64,000 nucleotides of DNA from a phage, in sequence record PV467748.1. One strand, 5' to 3'. Of this stretch, positions 8,685 to 50,117 are shown one piece after another. The position numbers and the translations under genes are program-made. The notes under the pieces are model-generated. The model was not told where the DNA came from and did no database searches. It worked only from the letters and a program-made list of their open reading frames with translations. The stretch's first letter is position 1; every line of letters begins with the position of its first letter.

Positions 8685-10016
8685 TCAAACATAATAGGCA
8701 TCAGTACGAGCACGGGTAATACTAACATAAGCCAGCTGTGAAGCTAAATTGGCATCTGCCATGTGCATGCACGGAGTATAGATGAAACTGTTTTGGACAG
8801 TAAGGCCCTGTGATTTATGAACGGTGCTCACCGGAAGAGCTCGAACCTTAGTGAACATTCTCTTAGCTTTCCAGAAATCAGCCCACTTAGGCTTCTTACC
8901 ACTACCACGCATGGCTTTGTACTCTGTAGCCACCTTAGCCAAGAAATAATGGAACTTCTCAACTGAAGCCTCATCGATAACCTTTAAATGCTCTACGTAG
9001 TACTCATCGTCTTCATCAACAGATTCAACCTGGAGGTCCCAGTAATTAATCATTTGACGAGTGCCTACATCCTTAGCAGACAAAAACAATGAGGTATGGT
9101 TCACATCCAGAATACGAACCATTTGCCCGTTGTTAAAAATGGTTTCAGAGAATTTCTTACCATCGTATTCAAGTTCCTTCATAAAAGGCTCTTGCATCAC
9201 TAGGATTTCACCCTTGATATAAGGTGCATCAGTTTCATAAAGCTTTTTACGAATAATGCTATTCAGCTTTTCAACCGATTTATTTGTATAAGCAAACATC
9301 CTATTTTCAAATAAGGCATCCGCGTCTTTTACGATGGAAAAATAATTCATCATAAAATCTTTTAAAGCCGTTTGAGATTTAAAACCATGGACCCCGTGAC
9401 CTTCAAATATACAATCTCTGAACCATCCACCGTTACGGATTTCAGTAGCAACCTCAATGATAGGAGCATTACTACGCATCACTTCAGTCAAATGTAATTG
9501 TTTGATTTTTGGATGTGTAAAGAATGGAGACAACTGAGGGCTACCATCACTTCCAGGTTCCACTGGCTGTAGCTGAGCTCTGTCGCCAATCCCTAATACA
9601 GTACACCATGGTGGCACGGAGGATTCAATAATCTTAAACAGCTTACCGTCAATCATCGAGCCTTCGTCAACAACTAGAACATTACATTTGCTCAAGTCAG
9701 GAGCTTCGCGTTGTTCAAAGATGTCCTGGTCTTCGTACGTAGTAGGGTTAATTTTTAGAATTCTATGAATTGTTGATGCTTCTTGACCTGCGAGTTTCGA
9801 CAATACCTTTTTGGCCGCATGAGTAGGCGCAGTCAAAATAACTCCGAGTTCACCATTCTTGACTAGATGGTCAAGAATAAATTTGGTAAGGGTTGTTTTA
9901 CCTGTACCAGCAGGACCGTTCAATGTAATCCATTCACCCTTACGTCGTTTAATAGCTTCAATGATTTCTTTAAAGGCAGTCCGTTGCCCAATATTCAAGT
10001 CTTCAAATGTAATCAT
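8685..10016 (-). CDS. dda: Dda DNA helicase (SF1)
   Basis: NGPAGTGKTT Walker A, VVDEGSM Walker B; near-collinear with remembered T4 Dda. Confidence 0.9.
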   Translation of the reverse strand: MITFEDLNIGQRTAFKEIIEAIKRRKGEWITLNGPAGTGKTTLTKFILDHLVKNGELGVILTAPTHAAKKVLSKLAGQEASTIHRILKINPTTYEDQDIFEQREAPDLSKCNVLVVDEGSMIDGKLFKIIESSVPPWCTVLGIGDRAQLQPVEPGSDGSPQLSPFFTHPKIKQLHLTEVMRSNAPIIEVATEIRNGGWFRDCIFEGHGVHGFKSQTALKDFMMNYFSIVKDADALFENRMFAYTNKSVEKLNSIIRKKLYETDAPYIKGEILVMQEPFMKELEYDGKKFSETIFNNGQMVRILDVNHTSLFLSAKDVGTRQMINYWDLQVESVDEDDEYYVEHLKVIDEASVEKFHYFLAKVATEYKAMRGSGKKPKWADFWKAKRMFTKVRALPVSTVHKSQGLTVQNSFIYTPCMHMADANLASQLAYVSITRARTDAYYV

Positions 10017-10312
10017 GCCAATTTTACTCGCTTAACATATAAAGTGTCTAAAACTAATTTCAATTCTCGGGCCCGTTCTTTGGTAGGAAAAACAGTTTTT
10101 GTTTCCCACTTATCAAACCACCATTTTCTTGGCGTGCACACTGTTTCAAGGCGTCCAAGCCGAAGATATCTTTTTGTTGAGATTTCATAAGCCTCTAAAG
10201 CAGTGTCGGCTCCAATCTTTGACGAATACAAAGTCACTTCACCGGCATCTTCTAATGGAATTTCATACCCGTCTTTGTCCTTGTGAACTAATACATATGC
10301 ATAGTACATCAC
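10013..10312 (-). CDS. hypothetical protein (dda.1 position)
   Basis: ORF only. Confidence 0.45.
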   Translation of the reverse strand: MMYYAYVLVHKDKDGYEIPLEDAGEVTLYSSKIGADTALEAYEISTKRYLRLGRLETVCTPRKWWFDKWETKTVFPTKERARELKLVLDTLYVKRVKLA

Positions 10313-10313
10313 G

Positions 10314-11048
10314 TTAACCTCTAATCAGTGAAAAAATTGAAGCATTCAGCGGGAGACCTTTTTTCAACTTCAATTTGTCAATAAAAGAAAGGTGTTCTAA
10401 ACGCTCCAGACCTTGGATAATTTTATCATACATATCGTAACGCGTTTCTGCTTCAGACAATTTAAACTTGACGCGCCAATCGGGTCCACCAATTAAAGAT
10501 TTAAGGCCTTTTTCCATAGTACCGATTGAAGCGTTAGAACCATGGATACGAGCCTTAACCGCGATGACAGAAGGGGTCTTATCAGTAGCTCCTGATTTAA
10601 TAAGGTCCTTAAGACGTTTTTCACGCTTTTTAAGGCCTCTTTGAGTATCTTTAATATTTTTAACTATTTTACGAATTTTATAATAGTTATCGGGGGTTAC
10701 TTTAAAACTATTAGGCATTTTAGAACTACCTGAAATACGGACCGCTAAACGGGTTTGTGCGCGTTTCAATTCGTCTAGAGACAAATCGGCACGTAAGCTG
10801 TTGTACTTAACTTTAACCGGGATTACATTACCTTCAATATAACCGATATCATTATTAAAACGTTCAAATGAAATCTTATCACTAACTGAATTCTCATCAA
10901 AGCTCTCGCCTGAATAAGCACACACTTTTTGTTCGAGAAGTCTACGAACATACTTACTAGACAGATTGAAGTCCTTACCACGTTTTTTGGCGGAAGCTTT
11001 AGTGTGTTCGCGACGTTTATAAACCTTTAATTCAAATTCAGGGGTCAT
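10314..11048 (-). CDS. srd: Srd-like protein (244 aa)
   Basis: size and position between dda.1 and modA as in T4; sequence not verified from memory. Confidence 0.45.
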   Translation of the reverse strand: MTPEFELKVYKRREHTKASAKKRGKDFNLSSKYVRRLLEQKVCAYSGESFDENSVSDKISFERFNNDIGYIEGNVIPVKVKYNSLRADLSLDELKRAQTRLAVRISGSSKMPNSFKVTPDNYYKIRKIVKNIKDTQRGLKKREKRLKDLIKSGATDKTPSVIAVKARIHGSNASIGTMEKGLKSLIGGPDWRVKFKLSEAETRYDMYDKIIQGLERLEHLSFIDKLKLKKGLPLNASIFSLIRG

Positions 11049-11082
11049 GATATTTTTCTCATCTTACGGACGATTAGTTGAT

Positions 11083-11125
11083 ATGTCTATAGTATCACGG
11101 TACTCGATAAAGTAAACACTTTTTT
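11083..11125 (-). promoter_or_regulatory. T4-type early promoter upstream of srd
   Basis: minus-strand GTTTAC-N17-TACTAT (plus: gtctatagtatcacggtactcgataaagtaaacac). Confidence 0.55.
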
Positions 11126-11186
11126 GCTTTAAATTTTCGACGGTATAATGAATCAAGGACTTTGCCTTTCAATTAAACCGGGTGGT

Positions 11187-11801
11187 TCAGTAAGAAAGAA
11201 CGGAAAGATTCCAAATGGTGTAATTATTCCATTTAGGATTTCTCTCAATAGAGTCTACGCGCAGCGTAGTTCCCGCAGGGAACATCATCTCATCTTCATC
11301 ATTGATTAATTGTAAGTTTGCTACACGGGTAGATTCAGGAAATGCACCTGGGAACTCTTCAGGGGGTGCAGCACATAACATTTTAAAGATTTCTTCCTGA
11401 TAATTGTATACAAATGGTGCATCATTAATACAAAAGATATTAAATGTTCCATAGAAGTTATAAGATGCAAAATTCCTTGCCACGTTGAAGTCTTTAGAGA
11501 AGCTCATTACTCGGTCGAATTCAATTACGGCACCTACACACATTGTGGACTCTAGATACTTCATAGTCTTTTTAGATATGCCGCGATAGAGCTTATCAGG
11601 CACTACAGAAGTCAGGTTCTTACGAATAATTTTGTTCAGAGTTTCTTGGATGCAATCCGGTTTATTTTCCATACACTGCCAGAGGGTACTCTGTTCTAAA
11701 TCAGAATACACCTCATCAATTTCTATCTGAGTATTCTCACGGAAATCATCGCATTTAGCGTTGTTGATAAATTCTGCTAATTTATGGCTTGGATATAACA
11801 T
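11187..11801 (-). CDS. modA: ADP-ribosyltransferase ModA-like
   Basis: paralog of the next gene; conserved YRGI...SFS...Q/E core; synteny. Confidence 0.5.
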   Translation of the reverse strand: MLYPSHKLAEFINNAKCDDFRENTQIEIDEVYSDLEQSTLWQCMENKPDCIQETLNKIIRKNLTSVVPDKLYRGISKKTMKYLESTMCVGAVIEFDRVMSFSKDFNVARNFASYNFYGTFNIFCINDAPFVYNYQEEIFKMLCAAPPEEFPGAFPESTRVANLQLINDEDEMMFPAGTTLRVDSIERNPKWNNYTIWNLSVLSY

Positions 11802-11855
11802 ATTATTCTCCTCAGTCGATAGAAAGATAGTACCACAAGCTTCCTTGCCTGTAAA

Positions 11856-12425
11856 CTAAAAATCCAACATTTTTAAATGAATTGTTTTATACTCGATTTC
11901 ATACGGGTCTCTTTTGACGGTTTCGATTGCAACAATCTCAAACCGCGATTGGCTGGAGACCATGAACTCACATTCAGTTTCAACCATATCATAGAGGTCA
12001 ATACGGGTTTCATCAATTTCAAGTTCATCTACATTCCCTGCAAGAACAAGGTCGATAGCATGATTGTAGTAGTCGAAAATGAACGGTGCATTCCTGAGAC
12101 TTAAAATGGTTTTGGTTCCATATTCCCATGCCCCTGCGAACTGACGAGCCTGAGAGTATTGTGTACTAAAAGAAGTAACGCGACCAGGAGACCATTGACA
12201 ACCTACTGAAAGGAGCTCTAATTGCTCAAGTTCTCTGGTGGTAATCCCGCGATAAAGCTCTACAGGAACGGCCGAAGTAACATGCTTACGAACCAGTTTA
12301 TCGAGGTCGTAATGAAAGTTAGGGTCCTTTTTAGCATCCAGACATTTCTCTAACAAGGCTTGTTCAGATTTTGAAAATTTGGAATTGATTCGGTCTTGAT
12401 AAAGACATTTTCGTTCGATATTCAT
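11856..12425 (-). CDS. modB: ADP-ribosyltransferase ModB-like
   Basis: paralog of modA (YRGITTRE...SFSTQYSQARQF); promoter with TATAAT at 12438-12478. Confidence 0.5.
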   Translation of the reverse strand: MNIERKCLYQDRINSKFSKSEQALLEKCLDAKKDPNFHYDLDKLVRKHVTSAVPVELYRGITTRELEQLELLSVGCQWSPGRVTSFSTQYSQARQFAGAWEYGTKTILSLRNAPFIFDYYNHAIDLVLAGNVDELEIDETRIDLYDMVETECEFMVSSQSRFEIVAIETVKRDPYEIEYKTIHLKMLDF

Positions 12426-12480
12426 ATGACCTCCAGTGATTTAGAGGTCATTATAACATGAAGGGAGGAGGTGTAAAACT

Positions 12481-12669
12481 TTATTTTACCCAAGGAGCCC
12501 AAGGTGGAGGGTCTAAGTAATAAGAAGCTAGGTCACTAAGGACCTCTTTAGGCAACTTAAAACCATGCTTCTGTATAATCATATCAAGCTCATTGACGAG
12601 GTCAACAGGCGGCTCCTGAGTTGTTTCAGGCTCAGGGTCTGGGATGACGAACATATCAAATAAGTCCAT
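12481..12669 (-). CDS. hypothetical protein (62 aa)
   Basis: ORF only. Confidence 0.35.
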   Translation of the reverse strand: MDLFDMFVIPDPEPETTQEPPVDLVNELDMIIQKHGFKLPKEVLSDLASYYLDPPPWAPWVK

Positions 12670-13160
12670 TAGTAACCACCAATAGGGCCGTACTCGTACA
12701 TACGAGCTCGCACCTTAGCATCACGAATAGCGTCTTCAGTCATGGTAAAGCGCAATCCAATATCAAAGTGCTTCCAAATCTGACGTTCAACTTCAGTAAG
12801 GTCTTCGATAGTAGAAATCAAATACGTACGGCCTTTAAGACGTTCATTGGACATTCTATCAGTATCTTTATAGAAAATATCCATGGTTCCTTCGGCATAC
12901 GGGTCTGCCGGATAACGATAACCCTTGATATGCAATGCTTCAGCCAGGCTAAAAGGACAATCTTCAGCAACATCAACATTTTTGTTATGGTAAGCCTTCA
13001 TCATAATATTTTCAGGCAGCTTAATATCTTTTAATCGTGTTTCTAACTGGGTTATAGAATTCATACCATTGTCAACAAAGATAAGACACACTGTAGCATC
13101 ATAAGGACGCGTTTGTCCGGCAGAATCACGAACAAAGAATTCTAGTTCATAAACTTTCAT
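12669..13160 (-). CDS. hypothetical protein (163 aa; mrh position)
   Basis: ORF only. Confidence 0.45.
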
Positions 13161-45403: not shown

Positions 45404-46376
45404 TTAATCCTTAAGAAGATTTAAGATATCGATATATTTCTGGCGTTCAGCCTTAGCTTTGGCATTCAGACCAGAGAGTCGGAAAATCTCATCATCTTGT
45501 TGTTGAATTGTAACATTCAAGCAAGTAAGCAAATTGCTAAAATACTCGATTTGAGCTTGATGCTTCTCATTGCTGCGCACCGGTACAGGTTCTGGTTTAG
45601 GAGCTTGTTCTGAATGCTCCTCAGCCTGGTCTTTAATTTTATAAAGTTTAATACGCTGACCCACTCCAGTTTCGGCATCACCAAAACTAAGAACACCGCG
45701 CTGTTCTAATACAGACAGGGCCAATCGGAGATGGAACTTCCAGTTGTCATATTGACAACCACTAAAAGTTGAAATGGTATACTCATTTTCATTTCCGGGG
45801 TGGTTAACAATATTAAAGATAATCCGATCACCTGAACCATTAGTCTTAAAGGTCATTTGTTTATCTTGACCTTTTGCAAGTCGAGCACCAAGAGCCAGTA
45901 GACGTCGTTGGTTGGCATGAAGGTCTTGAACAACTTCGTCAAATGACATCGTCATCACCTGAACCATTAGTCTTAAAGGTCATTTGTTTATCTTGACCTT
46001 TTGCAAGTCGAGCACCAAGAGCCAGTAGACGTCGTTGGTTGGCATGAAGGTCTTGAACAACTTCGTCAAATGACATCGTCGGGATTAAACGTCCGTAGAG
46101 GTCATAGCCTTTGTTATAATTTTTAAGAATAATTTTGGCATTAGCACGAGACAACATACCCGTTTTACGAAGAGTTTTCATGACTCGGTCTTCTAACGTA
46201 AACGAACCTTTAGTCTTGTCAAAGATTTTAGTGAAGTCATCTTTAACAGTACAAACGTTGAACTTGTCCCACATCATATATAGAACCTTTTCAACTACTT
46301 CTTTAGTACTCGGAATACGACCAAATTTAATAACTTTTTTAACTTCAGAACGAATTTGATTAATTGCCTGTGACAT
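45404..46376 (-). pseudogene. gene disrupted by a 127-bp tandem duplication (two overlapping ORFs; removing one copy restores a 281-codon frame)
   Basis: track ORFs 45404..45967 and 45939..46376 both contain MSFDEVVQDLHANQRRLLALGARLAKGQDKQMTFKTNGSGD; 973 nt minus 127 = 846 = 282 codons. Confidence 0.6.
45827..46080. repeat. perfect tandem direct repeat, 2 x 127 bp
   Basis: 45827-45953 is identical to 45954-46080 by direct reading. Confidence 0.85.
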
Positions 46377-46439: not shown

Positions 46440-46964
46440 TTATGCGAGAACCGTCTTTAAACGCTCTTCAAATTTCTGAAGCAGAGCTTGGCGTTCAACT
46501 CGTTGTGATTTGTACTGCTCGATACGACCTGAAGTGAGGGCGTACTGTTCGTTTACTGATTCCCGCATGAATTCAGGAATCTCTTTACAAGCTTTGATTT
46601 CGTCAAACTTATCAATAACAGCTTGTTGTTCGGCAATCAGATTATCGAAATAAGCGATATCAGATTTAACGTTTGCCAGGTCGGATTCAGTAGGCATTAA
46701 ACGTTTGTTACGTTCAGCTTGATAAGCTTGATTGTTTTCACGACTCCAGTGAAGAGTACGTTTTTTGTTAGTGTTTTTATAGAGCTCTACAATACCAACT
46801 GAATCGATGACTGCAATCCAGTTCCAACGGCTTTTGTAAATCTCTCCTCCAGATACGGTAATCTCATTACCACAAGCAACGTCGTTAAAGAACTTGCTTT
46901 GTTTTTCAGATTTGAAATTACCATTGTTAAAATTAATCAGTGAAAAAATATCTTTAGCGTTCAT
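46440..46964 (-). CDS. hypothetical protein (174 aa)
   Basis: SD GGAGG; early promoter at 46975-47018. Confidence 0.45.
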   Translation of the reverse strand: MNAKDIFSLINFNNGNFKSEKQSKFFNDVACGNEITVSGGEIYKSRWNWIAVIDSVGIVELYKNTNKKRTLHWSRENNQAYQAERNKRLMPTESDLANVKSDIAYFDNLIAEQQAVIDKFDEIKACKEIPEFMRESVNEQYALTSGRIEQYKSQRVERQALLQKFEERLKTVLA

Positions 46965-47021: not shown

Positions 47022-47363
47022 CTAATAGAAACTTTTTTCACCTGCTTGACCACTAAACCATGCGGATTGAGTGTTCTCTTTCCGTTGGTGTTTAATACGA
47101 ATAAGGTATTCGTTCCTGATGGCGCAGAGTTCATCTCTGAAGTCGACTGCCAACTTAACCTGCTTACGGTCTAGATTTATTAAGGCCTGGGTCTTCGCGG
47201 CCAAGGCCAGTCTCTTGTAGTCTCCTTCTTCACAATCGGTTTTGTAAACCTTCTCGGCGAATTGGTGTTTAAATTCATTATCATAGTCTTCAATAGACTG
47301 TTTCATGGCATTAGAGTATTTCAACTCTGCTTTTATAAGGTCATAACTAAATTGTTCGAACAT
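47022..47363 (-). CDS. hypothetical protein (113 aa)
   Basis: ORF only. Confidence 0.4.
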   Translation of the reverse strand: MFEQFSYDLIKAELKYSNAMKQSIEDYDNEFKHQFAEKVYKTDCEEGDYKRLALAAKTQALINLDRKQVKLAVDFRDELCAIRNEYLIRIKHQRKENTQSAWFSGQAGEKSFY

Positions 47364-47373
47364 AATTTCACCT

Positions 47374-48354
47374 TTATTTCAGAAGTGTAACTTCAGCGAT
47401 TTCGCTCCAGTCATTTTTATCGGTGGCAATGAAGTCCGCCAGATAAAGAGCCGTACGTAATGATACGTTACGAAGACGAGATACATTGGCCTTCATCCAT
47501 GCTAGAGCTTGATAAGTCTCAGCATCAGTCAGACCTCGGTTTTGCATCATATCAGTGGACAGGATAACGTCTTCAACACGAACCATAATCTCTTCATTCG
47601 AGTGAACTCCGAGGTCTAAGTAAACTGAACGAGATACTAAAGCCTGGAGGTGTGGAGCAAGTTTAGTGCCGCGTTCTAATTCACGGTCAATATCAACGTT
47701 GGTGATGAACACGATGGTGCCTTCATATTCGAATTCTTTATCGATATTTTTATCATCGAGGTAAGAACTTGAAGTGCTCCAGCACACCTTACGTTTTTCA
47801 CCGGTATCCAATGCCGCTTTTAACAGGTTCAGGATATCCATATCAGAGAATACATCGACATCATCGATAAGAAGAACACTATTAGGGCCGCGGTTATTCC
47901 AAAGCTGCTCGTAAAGACCGATTCCACTAATCTTTCCGTTGATTGATTTATATTCGATAGTTTCATTTTCGTGGGCATTCTGTAATGCTTTATCCAAAGA
48001 ATACGTTTTACCAATACCTGCGGCACCAGAGATGATAAGGGAACGAATTTTACCATCGATGATTCCGTTAGTCATCATGTTCATTACTTTAAAACGTTTG
48101 TTGATGCGGTGTTTCATTTCTTCAGCGGATTCAGTAACCACTACAGGAGCTTCAGCACCTTCCATTTCAACATCACATTTGAACACCCATATACCACGTT
48201 CAACACCATCAATCTGTACGAATACCTTGCCATCACCGAGGTGAGCTTCGGATTCATGAATTTTATTAGGGAACCAGGTTTTACCTGAACTCATGAACGT
48301 ACCAGAGATTTCATTACCGCGATAGATACCTTTGTTGATTTTGATAGTTAACAT
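47374..48354 (-). CDS. AAA+/P-loop ATPase (326 aa; start refined)
   Basis: Walker A ISGAAGIGKTYSL, Walker B VLLIDDVD. Confidence 0.55.
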   Translation of the reverse strand: MLTIKINKGIYRGNEISGTFMSSGKTWFPNKIHESEAHLGDGKVFVQIDGVERGIWVFKCDVEMEGAEAPVVVTESAEEMKHRINKRFKVMNMMTNGIIDGKIRSLIISGAAGIGKTYSLDKALQNAHENETIEYKSINGKISGIGLYEQLWNNRGPNSVLLIDDVDVFSDMDILNLLKAALDTGEKRKVCWSTSSSYLDDKNIDKEFEYEGTIVFITNVDIDRELERGTKLAPHLQALVSRSVYLDLGVHSNEEIMVRVEDVILSTDMMQNRGLTDAETYQALAWMKANVSRLRNVSLRTALYLADFIATDKNDWSEIAEVTLLK

Positions 48355-48444
48355 TATATTCTCCGTTTCACTCAGTAGATTTGATAGGTCCATAATAACA
48401 TGCTCTACGAGGTTGTAAACACTTTTTTGCACTAAACCCAAAAA

Positions 48445-48468
48445 AAGGACCCCGAAGGGTCCTAAATT
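48445..48468 (-). terminator. UUCG-tetraloop hairpin
   Basis: aggaccc-cgaa-gggtcct preceded by an A-run (U-run on the transcript). Confidence 0.5.
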
Positions 48469-48686
48469 GCGCTCCAATAATTATGGAAGCGGATATTATT
48501 GATAGCCCAGTTAATACAACGTCTTATCTGCTTAGTCGTAGGCTTGCATACGTACTTGAAATTGATTCTTCTACCGGTTTCTCTACAAACTACTTCAAGA
48601 TACCAACGACAGGTTTTATGAGGTCTTCCATATGACAGGAAAACCTTGATTTCTTCTTTAACGGTAATAAGAGTTGTGGTTGTCAA
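48462..48686 (-). CDS. small basic protein with KPTTKQIRR motif (family member 4)
   Basis: shared motif. Confidence 0.4.
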   Translation of the reverse strand: MTTTTLITVKEEIKVFLSYGRPHKTCRWYLEVVCRETGRRINFKYVCKPTTKQIRRCINWAINNIRFHNYWSAI

Positions 48687-49698
48687 GATACACCTCTTCG
48701 ACGAACTTGTCCCAGAACTTCATGTCTACCTTCTCAGGCATACCGTTCTTAGCAGCCTGGATGGCTAGGACTTCAACCAAATCAACAGTATCTTCAAGAA
48801 GTTCTTGAACTTCTTTAAATGGTAATTCACCGGCTTTAATCAGCTTAATGATAGAGGCTTCACGCAATGGGAACACCAGGTCGCCTGTTTGGTAGATTTC
48901 CAACAATTGATACCCTGCGCGATAAGCATGGCTCAGAGCTTTCCAGTCAATACCTTCGTTAGCTTCAGCTTTACGGGCCCGTTCACCATATTCCGCATCG
49001 AGCTTATTCAGAGATTGCTTGAGCTCGATTAAAGATAAAGTAGTTTGGTACTTACGTCCAAGAACAGTATAGAACGTTTGAGGGCCTGTTTTCTCATGGT
49101 TATGGAATACCCATTCACAGAATTCGTTTTCAGGGAGTCGATGTTTGATATCTTCTACCTTAGTGCGACGTTGCTTAGTAGAACCATCTTCTTGATAATC
49201 AACCCACTGTTCAGGAATCTGGTTGACTATTGCCAGTACACCACGCAGAGCAGCCAGACGAGAACCTTTAACACCATATTTAGAAGCTTGCTTACGGACA
49301 TACCCTAAATAGGCTTTCATGTTGGTTGTATAGAACCGAGAACGGTTGTCTTGGATAAATTTCCATACATCAGGTAAATCAGATTTAACCACCATTTCAG
49401 GCGGAGTGTGGAGCATATCCAGAGCAACGGTTTCGCCATCAGCAGCCAGTTTAAAGAAATATTTCAGGCTATAAAGCTCATGGTCAACATCATCTTTAGT
49501 GTTTTTGGAAGCAGTGTTATTCGTGTTCAGGTTGGTATGGTTCATAGCCGTACCTAACAGAATATCACGCGGATGCGGAACAAAGATTTCTTTAAAATCG
49601 ATATCAGATTCCGGAGTACTTGTTCCATAAAGGTGGCTACCGAAGTAGCCCTTCATAATTGTTCTCATTCTTTGTTCTCGAAGTGGATTACAGGACAC
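48658..49698 (-). CDS. pol-beta-superfamily nucleotidyltransferase domain protein (346 aa)
   Basis: YFGSHLYGTSTPESDIDF matches the GS-x10-DxD minimal nucleotidyltransferase signature. Confidence 0.5.
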   Translation of the reverse strand: MSCNPLREQRMRTIMKGYFGSHLYGTSTPESDIDFKEIFVPHPRDILLGTAMNHTNLNTNNTASKNTKDDVDHELYSLKYFFKLAADGETVALDMLHTPPEMVVKSDLPDVWKFIQDNRSRFYTTNMKAYLGYVRKQASKYGVKGSRLAALRGVLAIVNQIPEQWVDYQEDGSTKQRRTKVEDIKHRLPENEFCEWVFHNHEKTGPQTFYTVLGRKYQTTLSLIELKQSLNKLDAEYGERARKAEANEGIDWKALSHAYRAGYQLLEIYQTGDLVFPLREASIIKLIKAGELPFKEVQELLEDTVDLVEVLAIQAAKNGMPEKVDMKFWDKFVEEVYLDNHNSYYR

Positions 49699-50117
49699 AT
49701 CTTAGATTTACGAGCTTTAATGTATTGAATAACGATATTTTCTTTAGTTTCTCGGCCTTCACGCTCAGCTTGAATACGTTGCCATTCCTTTTCTTCTCTA
49801 CGGGCATCATACCATGCGTGTAAATTCATCGCACCAAATGCCAAACCGATGGATAGTGCAATAATAAGAGCTATTGTAATCAACCCTAAAGCAAACCCTA
49901 GACTCAACAGAACAGGAGTACTTAATACAAAGAAATGCTCTAATACCCCAGCGCCTGCAACAGTTAATCCAAAAAGCGTACTACCTGCAACAACAGCACA
50001 AGCAAAACAAGCCCAAACCATTTTCCAGAAATAAGCACACAAAGAGTGTGGTCGAGAATGACGGTCATAAAAACGGTCGTGTAATTTAACGTGCCAAGAG
50101 TTTGTGTTGATAATCAT
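49665..50117 (-). CDS. membrane protein (150 aa)
   Basis: several hydrophobic segments. Confidence 0.45.
   Translation of the reverse strand: MIINTNSWHVKLHDRFYDRHSRPHSLCAYFWKMVWACFACAVVAGSTLFGLTVAGAGVLEHFFVLSTPVLLSLGFALGLITIALIIALSIGLAFGAMNLHAWYDARREEKEWQRIQAEREGRETKENIVIQYIKARKSKMCPVIHFENKE

Follow-up and report, generated by a model that had tools for sequence, protein, structure and literature searches.

RNA repair as a counter-defence of phages has its founding example in the polynucleotide kinase-phosphatase and RNA ligase 1 of bacteriophage T4 (Pnk/Rnl1), a pathway that nucleases of the RloC type have been proposed to defeat by taking away a nucleotide. RlaP, a family of DNA polymerase beta-type nucleotidyltransferases, has been proposed to restore the nucleotides taken by such 'smart' ribotoxins before ligation takes place (PMC12776372, a preprint of December 2025), and the same prediction of restoration after RloC was made by Iyer et al. 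(2021), who found the distribution of RlaP in jumbo phages to mirror that of RNA ligases. The founding paper of the family is that of Burroughs and Aravind (2016), whose prediction is given here as it is reported in the citing papers PMC12776372 and PMC7824862. Here we analyze a nucleotidyltransferase (NTase) gene and the adjacent AAA+ ATPase gene of a phage (sequence record PV467748.1), of which a stretch of 64,000 nucleotides, hereafter the window, was examined. We conclude that the NTase, an orthologue of T4 NrdC.11, is probably an RNA-end-rebuilding enzyme that serves the tRNA repair carried out by phage Pnk/Rnl1, and that the ATPase, an orthologue of T4 NrdC.10, is not its partner.

Two canonical members of the RlaP family, PfRlaP and PaRlaP of Pseudomonas, have been characterised (PMC12776372). 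Canonical RlaP adds one or two nucleoside monophosphates (NMP), or deoxynucleoside monophosphates (dNMP), to the 3'-OH of RNA, works best with Mn2+ and is inactive on DNA or protein. In a nicked tRNA mimic it prefers the 3' end of the 5' half, with little specificity for the nucleoside triphosphate (NTP). In the crystal structure the NTase domain is N-terminal and a helical domain C-terminal. The same study places T4 NrdC.11 explicitly in the RlaP family, in cluster 5 of its similarity network. A domain assignment for both NrdC.10 and NrdC.11 was already available in 2006 (PMC1524935), and our literature search found no functional data on nrdC.10 or nrdC.11.

The 3.2-kb region that carries the two genes shares 96% DNA identity with Escherichia phage fDHCT2 and 92-94% with the T4-like Dhakavirus relatives IME341, QL01, Bp7 and JS10, the value for Bp7 and JS10 being 93%, and by this similarity the window comes from a T4-like phage of the genus Dhakavirus. 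In the annotation of Bp7 and JS10 the NTase gene is nrdC.11 and the ATPase gene nrdC.10. In T4, nrdC.11 is followed after a gap of 114 bp by nrdC.10, which is the gene order of the window. As judged from these comparisons, the Pol-beta-fold NTase of the window (48658-49668, minus strand; 336 residues), a member of the RlaP family (PF10127) by its Pfam match, is the orthologue of T4 NrdC.11, and the AAA+ ATPase (47374-48354, minus strand; 326 residues) is the orthologue of T4 NrdC.10.

The NTase open reading frame (ORF), the stop codon of which ends at 48658, was correctly recognised in the initial annotation, whereas the length of 346 residues given there, counted from a GTG at 49698, did not stand. 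This longer form was rejected because the ATG at 49668 overlaps the stop codon of the upstream gene and because homologues mostly have 336 residues; the true start is almost certainly ATG 49668, which gives a protein of 336 residues. The 120 closest homologues range from 328 to 343 residues, most of them having 336, and all 120 carry a precomputed assignment to PF10127, while nrdC.11 is annotated with a length of 1011 nt in both Bp7 and T4. The minimal nucleotidyltransferase signature reported for the protein is present at residues 10-24 of the 336-residue form (GSHLYGTSTPESDID, that is, G-S-x10-D-I-D), and the catalytic residues are G10-S11, D22-x-D24 and D62. Searched as a profile against 1.84 billion cluster representatives, the NTase gave 10,156 proteins at E ≤ 0.001, of which 2001 reached E ≤ 1e-30. 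When the window NTase was aligned with 145 of the best representatives, which are 34-53% identical to it, G10, D22 and D24 were found in all 146 sequences and S11 in 144, and position 62 was Asp in 141 and Glu in 5. Likewise, in an alignment of 133 sequences with identities down to approximately 30%, no variation was seen at G10, S11, D22 and D24, and at least 90% of the sequences have D62. The catalytic Asp residues, on whose conservation in homologues the NTase assignment had been made to depend, are therefore retained, and NrdC.11 is, to judge from its catalytic residues, catalytically intact. The C-terminal half holds a further group of conserved residues, of which Y131, R230, H247, R250 and P267 are found in 146 of 146 sequences and D241 and K243 in 145.

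The AlphaFold2 model of the NTase (predicted local distance difference test score, pLDDT, 89.0) has G10-S11 after strand 1, while D22 and D24 open strand 2 and D62 opens a later one, which is the usual Pol-beta layout. The overall plan is the one described for RlaP: the NTase domain comes first and is followed by a helical domain, the last element of which is a long helix. The helical C-terminal domain that had been proposed from the sequence is thus seen in the model, in which the catalytic domain is followed by a helical region, a beta-rich insertion at residues ~154-208 and long C-terminal helices (helices 213-335).

The window NTase matches the Pfam family RlaP (PF10127, 'RNA repair pathway DNA polymerase beta family') with 47.2 bits (E 3e-12), above the curated gathering threshold, which is 23, and T4 NrdC.11 scores 46.6 bits. 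A homologue from Deferribacter, 29% identical to the window NTase over residues 10-283, covers positions 2-246 of the 249 positions of the Pfam model. Moreover, when residues 131-225 of the window NTase were removed in silico, the profile of canonical RlaP aligned through K243-x3-H247-A-x-R250 and P267, the canonical counterparts being K165-x3-Y169-A-x-R172 and P188. The Deferribacter protein as a bridge and the alignment obtained after removal of 131-225 together suggest, though no more than suggest, that the C-terminal part of NrdC.11 is homologous to that of canonical RlaP and is broken by an insertion of ~95 residues. NrdC.11 appears to represent a divergent, insertion-bearing branch of RlaP, distinct from the canonical type. 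The two types also occur in different phages: canonical RlaP was found in 80 phage records, ~70 of which are jumbo phages of Pseudomonas, Brevundimonas, Burkholderia and Caulobacter and none of which is T4-like, while the NrdC.11 type was found in 1613 phage records, mostly T4-like.

The genomic context of cellular relatives points to RNA repair. A scan with one genome per species gave 80 cellular loci with full-length relatives of 35-52% identity, and in 27 of them the gene following the NrdC.11-like NTase encodes canonical RlaP; the adjoining second NTase, a protein of 269 residues, has a full-length Pfam match to this family (E 5e-70). Searching all 80 loci by tblastn revealed RtcB at 10 of them, Pnkp at 7 and Hen1 at 5, in each case within 8 kb; an HD_4 protein is encoded at 3. 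Operon-like neighbours, 129 in all, were scanned with Pfam, a partial census as a simple ORF caller did not recover the NTase ORF in 12 of the 80 loci (high-GC); the scan found RlaP (14), Ro60 vWA (3), TROVE (2), DEAD helicases (3), kinase-type AAA_33 (3), Metallophos (2) and HD (2) domains, in addition to methyltransferases of the Hen1 kind, one PNKP ligase domain and one RtcB. On an Asticcacaulis plasmid (L171, 2077-7790) an operon consists of Hen1, Pnkp, an NrdC.11-like NTase and canonical RlaP, in this order, the NTase being the best plasmid homologue of the window protein (38% identity over 285 residues). RtcB lies 2.6 kb from the Deferribacter homologue. The tandem of NrdC.11-like NTase and canonical RlaP, which at some loci forms part of a Hen1-Pnkp operon, suggests a two-enzyme step in RNA end repair, and no description of such a tandem was found in the literature covered; further examples were seen at L181, L205, L221, L245 and other loci. 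As a separate observation, a gene for an HD_4 protein (RelA/SpoT-type HD hydrolase) adjoins the NrdC.11-like NTase gene at 3 of the 80 loci (L213, L224 and L229), and the HD_4 and NTase ORFs overlap in the prophage-like Novosphingobium locus from which the query was taken (L168, 7378-8984). These neighbours recall the pairing of NTase and HD domains in class II CCA-adding enzymes.

In phages, the distribution of NrdC.11 was compared with that of RnlA (RNA ligase 1) by counting records grouped according to the first word of the organism name. The resulting aggregate per-genus counts of NrdC.11 and RnlA, respectively, show a striking match: 641 and 637 records for Escherichia, 286 and 287 for Klebsiella, 83 and 83 for Shigella, 75 and 77 for Aeromonas, 69 and 69 for Acinetobacter, 56 and 56 for Enterobacter, 48 and 48 for 'Enterobacteria', and 39 and 38 for Salmonella. 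PseT, the polynucleotide kinase-phosphatase, is distributed more broadly than either. Both rnlA and pseT are encoded by Bp7, which belongs to the same genus as the window phage.

The family membership, the cellular context and the distribution in phages are consistent with a role of NrdC.11 in the repair of tRNA during infection. NrdC.11 would act on RNA 3' ends in the same manner as canonical RlaP, and its targets in infected cells would be tRNAs that have been cut, and subsequently trimmed, by anticodon nucleases of the host. Its step would fall between the healing of the ends by PseT and their sealing by RnlA, and it would rebuild those ends from which a host nuclease of the RloC type has stripped a nucleotide. 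An activity of the NrdC.11 subfamily on RNA 3' ends, tRNA as its target and a counter-defence function are inferred. The initial annotation had called the substrate unknown, which overstates the matter, given that the protein is the T4 NrdC.11 orthologue in a family whose canonical members add one or two NMP to an RNA 3'-OH (PMC12776372), and that its cellular homologues stand in an RNA-repair context.

Several observations weigh against this interpretation. The Pfam match to RlaP spans only residues 8-144 of the window NTase, or positions 15-142 of the 249 in the model, and profile-profile alignment (hhalign) of the NrdC.11 type with the canonical RlaP paralogues covers only 88 columns, corresponding to the catalytic core (87% probability, E 4e-6). 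The C-terminal correspondence is seen only after removal of 131-225, and the gain is small (16.6 versus 13.7 bits). The enzymes that were characterised belong to the canonical cluster 1a, whereas T4 NrdC.11 falls in cluster 5 (PMC12776372). In the phage, no RNA ligase or kinase gene is found near the NTase gene, and rnlA and pseT of Bp7 are ~80 kb away. The agreement between NrdC.11 and RnlA is one of aggregate per-genus counts and not of records matched one by one. Finally, the T4 block from nrdC.11 to mobD.3 can be deleted without loss of viability in laboratory hosts (PMC9825161); this dispensability fits an accessory role and gives no positive evidence for one.

The target might also be the acceptor end of tRNA, in which case the enzyme, rather than act at breaks in the anticodon loop, would restore or finish the CCA of tRNAs, from phage or host, that nucleases of the host have trimmed. 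The chemistry would be that of RlaP, namely the addition of one or two nucleotides to a 3'-OH. T4-like phages carry tRNA genes of their own and need the tRNA pool to be intact. Additionally, CCA-adding enzymes are the next most common NTases of jumbo phages (Iyer et al. 2021). We nevertheless consider this target unlikely: neither sequence nor fold comparison linked the window NTase to CCA-adding enzymes of class I or class II, canonical RlaP, which has little NTP specificity, favoured the anticodon-side over the acceptor-side 3' end of nicked tRNA mimics, and the distribution of NrdC.11 tracks that of RNA ligase 1, an enzyme that seals internal breaks.

Alternatively, the NTase might not act on RNA ends at all, making instead a signalling or decoy oligonucleotide, like HalB of the Hailong anti-phage system or the CD-NTases, or nucleotidylating a protein or small molecule in the manner of the antitoxin MntA and the aminoglycoside nucleotidyltransferases, perhaps as an anti-defence function. 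A search of the PDB by sequence with the NTase returned no matches. Foldseek with the NTase model gave nothing below E 0.015, the best matches being 3c18, HalB (Hailong) and the kanamycin/ANT(4') nucleotidyltransferases. Three of the folds initially put forward for comparison, CD-NTase, MenT/AbiEii and CCA-adding enzymes, were not among the matches listed, and no family-level match to them was obtained in sequence or fold; the fourth, kanamycin nucleotidyltransferase, proved to be a distant fold relative only. HalB (PDB 9dbh) and ANT(4') (1kny, 6nlt) share 10-14% identity with NrdC.11; the likeness is one of fold, with no family-level sequence match. The substrates differ, HalB having been solved in complex with oligodeoxyadenylate and dATP and aminoglycosides being the substrates of ANT(4'), and the genomic contexts of both differ from that of NrdC.11. 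Structure matches of this kind, with 7-14% identity and E values of 0.015 or above, are at the level expected of any Pol-beta NTase with a helical domain, and they met no competition from the RlaP family, of which neither the sequence search nor the fold search of the PDB copies used retrieved a chain (PfRlaP included). Moreover, searches of NCBIfam and PADLOC gave no meaningful match for any of four proteins, so that known defence-system families are ruled out at the sequence level, and PADLOC and Pfam returned no match to CD-NTase, AbiEii or another defence family for the NTase. The Pfam assignment is RlaP, and cellular homologues occur in RNA-repair operons. An activity directed away from RNA ends therefore seems improbable to us.

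The juxtaposition of the two genes, which the heading of the initial annotation implied to be meaningful, could be taken to indicate a two-gene module, for instance one in which an ATP-driven remodeller delivers or regulates the substrate of the transferase. Indeed, the two genes, which are oriented alike, lie close together in the window as well as in T4 and at 38 of 78 viral NTase loci, and the ATPase gene, where it is nearby, always lies downstream. As had been described, a small basic protein and a terminator separate the two genes in the window. The basic ORF (48462-48686, minus strand) encodes 74 residues with an isoelectric point of 10.0 and four Cys, and matches DUF7279 (E 6e-12) and phrog_8921 (E 2e-35). 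The intrinsic terminator, a strong one (48446-48463, minus strand), with a G+C-rich stem of 7 bp, a UUCG loop and a tail of seven T, reads AGGACCCTTCGGGGTCCT followed by T7 at 48463-48446 and begins at the stop codon of the small ORF. In addition, a sigma-70 promoter-like site of the T4-early type, absent from the initial annotation, is predicted 5' of the ATPase gene (48392-48419, minus strand; GTTTACA-16-(TG)TATTAT, a consensus match at 10 of 12 positions only), and the same interval contains the Shine-Dalgarno sequence of the ATPase gene (GGAG). In T4, the interval holds a UUCG-loop terminator directly after nrdC.11, the sequence GTTTACA-17-TACTAT and the GGAG-ATG of nrdC.10, and no small ORF. 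This arrangement of terminator and promoter-like site, common to both phages, suggests that nrdC.10 starts its own transcription unit in the window phage as well as in T4.

The distribution of the two genes was assessed on two sets of viral contigs, 78 fetched by means of the NTase and 80 by means of the ATPase. Among the NTase loci, the ATPase gene is found within 10 kb in 38, behind spacers of 0.1-2.3 kb that hold unrelated inserts, and is not nearby in the other 40; among the ATPase loci, 39 of 80 have an NTase gene near. Three loci whose NTase is 90% identical to that of the window (L010, L012 and L040) have no ATPase gene within 10 kb. In four Aeromonas-type genomes with both genes, the surrounding 21-kb stretches start ~38-111 kb apart, as in UViG_638275429, where the stretches span 36.6-57.5 kb (NTase) and 148.4-169.4 kb (ATPase). 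The genes are also tens of kb apart in genomes of the KVP40 type, and in a KVP40-like phage the NTase gene is near rIIA/rIIB and dda. Marine T4-like contigs carry the ATPase with no NTase nearby, the ATPase stands beside none of the cellular NTase homologues examined, and its counts per genus (Escherichia 558, Klebsiella 149, Vibrio 121) differ strongly from those of the NTase. With apparently separate transcription units, differing phyletic distributions and distant positions in other T4-like genomes, a functional module of the two genes is very improbable. The scattered positions and differing counts indicate that the adjacency reflects a gene order inherited in part of the Tevenvirinae, within a plastic, insert-prone region; NTase and ATPase are not a functional pair and are neighbours by inherited gene order. 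Their adjacency is thus ordinary T4 synteny and does not reveal a new system.

As for the RNA-end-rebuilding role of NrdC.11, a more specific form of it may tentatively be put forward, which we regard as possible but hold with much less confidence. The NrdC.11 type would be a distinct RlaP paralogue that, in bacteria, forms together with canonical RlaP a two-enzyme system for the rebuilding of ends in operons of the Pnkp/Hen1 and RtcB kinds, and that in T4-like phages would be the third, hitherto unrecognised enzyme of the PseT-RnlA pathway, undoing the excision by RloC. If true, NrdC.11 would be a counter-counter-defence enzyme present in ~1600 sequenced phages. Rebuilding of the lost nucleotide would explain one more round of the arms race and would assign a function to a gene of most T4-like phages. 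Both genes are long-known T4 ORFs, and NrdC.11 had already been named as a member of RlaP with a published functional prediction. New here are the observations that speak against the ATPase as a partner, the nearly identical distribution of NrdC.11 and RnlA, and the recognition that a separate, apparently insertion-bearing paralogue stands beside canonical RlaP in repair operons of bacteria.

For the ATPase, the initial assignment of a Walker A/B protein of 326 residues was borne out. Its ATG at 48354 is preceded by GGAG, and phrog_1250 (E 8e-163) aligns from exactly that residue, which is residue 42 of the long ORF; a TTG start giving 367 residues was rejected on account of the Shine-Dalgarno sequence, the ATG and the start of this alignment. 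Walker A is GAAGIGKT at residues 110-117 and Walker B is VLLIDD at 160-165 (D164-D165). Invariant in 78 homologues are G110, G113, G115-K116-T117, D164-D165, N219, S241-R242-S243, R295 and R300, and from conservation and position N219 may be sensor 1 and R242, within S241-R242-S243, appears arginine-finger-like. The AlphaFold2 model (pLDDT 89.9) shows an AAA+ fold, consisting of a beta-domain (1-65), a linker helix (77-99), the AAA+ core and a helical lid (253-326). Foldseek gave a probability of 1.0 to many AAA+ structures, with E values of ~1e-5 and template modeling (TM) scores of ~0.4; core and lid match generic AAA+ proteins (NtrC1/PspF sigma-54 activators, RFC, RuvB, Hda, ORC/Cdc6, dynein and NSF) at 11-16% identity, with no closest clade. 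The Pfam matches to AAA_14 and AAA_22 are weak and below threshold, NCBIfam and PADLOC gave nothing above threshold for the ATPase, and a sequence search of the PDB returned chance-level matches only. Some annotations call the protein a clamp loader, which was not adopted since the similarity is limited to a weak PHROG match (phrog_168, E 2e-5). At E ≤ 0.001, 791 homologues were found, and those with names are from T4-like or jumbo phages, save for a few records under bacterial names. With homologues that number in the hundreds to thousands, neither the ATPase nor the NTase is a chance ORF. As the jumbo-phage homologues align only from residue ~75-83 onward, the N-terminal beta-domain (1-65) is specific to T4-like phages. 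Taken together, NrdC.10 is a complete and probably active AAA+ ATPase, encoded independently of the NTase.

The neighbours of NrdC.10 in other phages hint at a role in DNA metabolism. In KVP40 (L170, 6146-8482) the gene lies between nrdA-nrdB-nrdC-vs.1 and the topoisomerase gene 52. On the marine T4-like contigs (L139-L164, ~10001-13000), which encode an ATPase of 31-32% identity with no NTase nearby, the ATPase gene is followed by an ORF of 480-515 residues in ~20 of the loci examined. The three of these ORFs that were sampled encode UvsW-type helicases. The ATPase gene of these contigs immediately precedes the gene for a UvsW-type helicase, and a conserved ORF of 166 residues is also present there.

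All genes of the region are carried on the minus strand. Upstream of the NTase gene, a predicted membrane protein of 150 residues (49665-50117, minus strand; phrog_944 'membrane protein', E 1.5e-56) is encoded by a gene whose stop codon overlaps the NTase start codon (ATGA, 49665-49668), and the same 4-bp overlap is annotated in Bp7. Because of this overlap of stop and start, the NTase is probably translationally coupled to the membrane protein, which belongs to the surroundings of the enzyme and not to the enzyme itself. The 74-residue ORF shares 29 nt with the 3' end of the NTase gene, and its sole in-frame start is a TTG, which is the apparent start. It is kept in many Tevenvirinae at 51-80% identity (tblastn across loci), is present or absent in related phages independently of both flanking genes, and is missing in T4 and Bp7. 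Downstream of the ATPase gene follow a DUF7203 protein of 113 residues (47022-47363; Pfam) and the nrdC.8 orthologue of 174 residues (46440-46964; phrog_2274). The close relatives L010, L012 and L040, which have no ATPase gene there, lack the DUF7203 gene as well, and tblastn found no match to it in T4.

Further downstream, a perfect (100%) tandem duplication of 127 nt is present (45827-45953 and 45954-46080). As 127 is not a multiple of three, the duplication splits the nrdC.6 orthologue into two ORFs, at 45404-45967 (187 residues) and 45939-46376 (145 residues), which have a peptide of 41 residues in common; in Bp7, nrdC.6 is a single ORF of 840 nt. The duplication is either a real, frameshifting one or an assembly artefact. 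Regarding nomenclature, in many GenBank phage records the proteins of nrdC.10 and nrdC.11 appear as 'thioredoxin', in others the ATPase appears as 'clamp loader', and in one the NTase is labelled 'HNH homing endonuclease'. The 'thioredoxin' labels have apparently spread from the gene-name prefix nrdC, and no support for any of the three labels was found in this analysis.

Comparison with T4 shows close correspondence. T4 NrdC.11 (NP_049709, T4p095) also has 336 residues and shares 82-83% amino acid identity with the window NTase, and T4 NrdC.10 (NP_049708, T4p094) is 76% identical to the window ATPase, the lengths being 325-326 residues. Gene order, strand and the succession of a UUCG-loop terminator and a GTTTACA early-type promoter are the same in both phages. 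The window phage differs in having the additional 74-residue DUF7279 ORF between the genes, which T4 lacks, and in having the membrane-protein gene upstream of nrdC.11, where T4 has the homing endonuclease gene mobD. Compared with canonical RlaP of the YcgL type (PfRlaP, PaRlaP), NrdC.11 has in common the G-S, D-x-D and D triad, the two-domain plan of NTase and helical domain and, probably, the C-terminal motif K-x3-[H/Y]-A-x-R. The NrdC.11 type is longer, with ~320-336 residues versus ~250-270 for canonical RlaP, and appears to carry the insertion of ~95 residues (~131-225), comprising a helix, a beta-sheet and a long helix. In bacteria, both types are associated with RNA-repair genes of the Pnkp/Hen1 and RtcB kinds.

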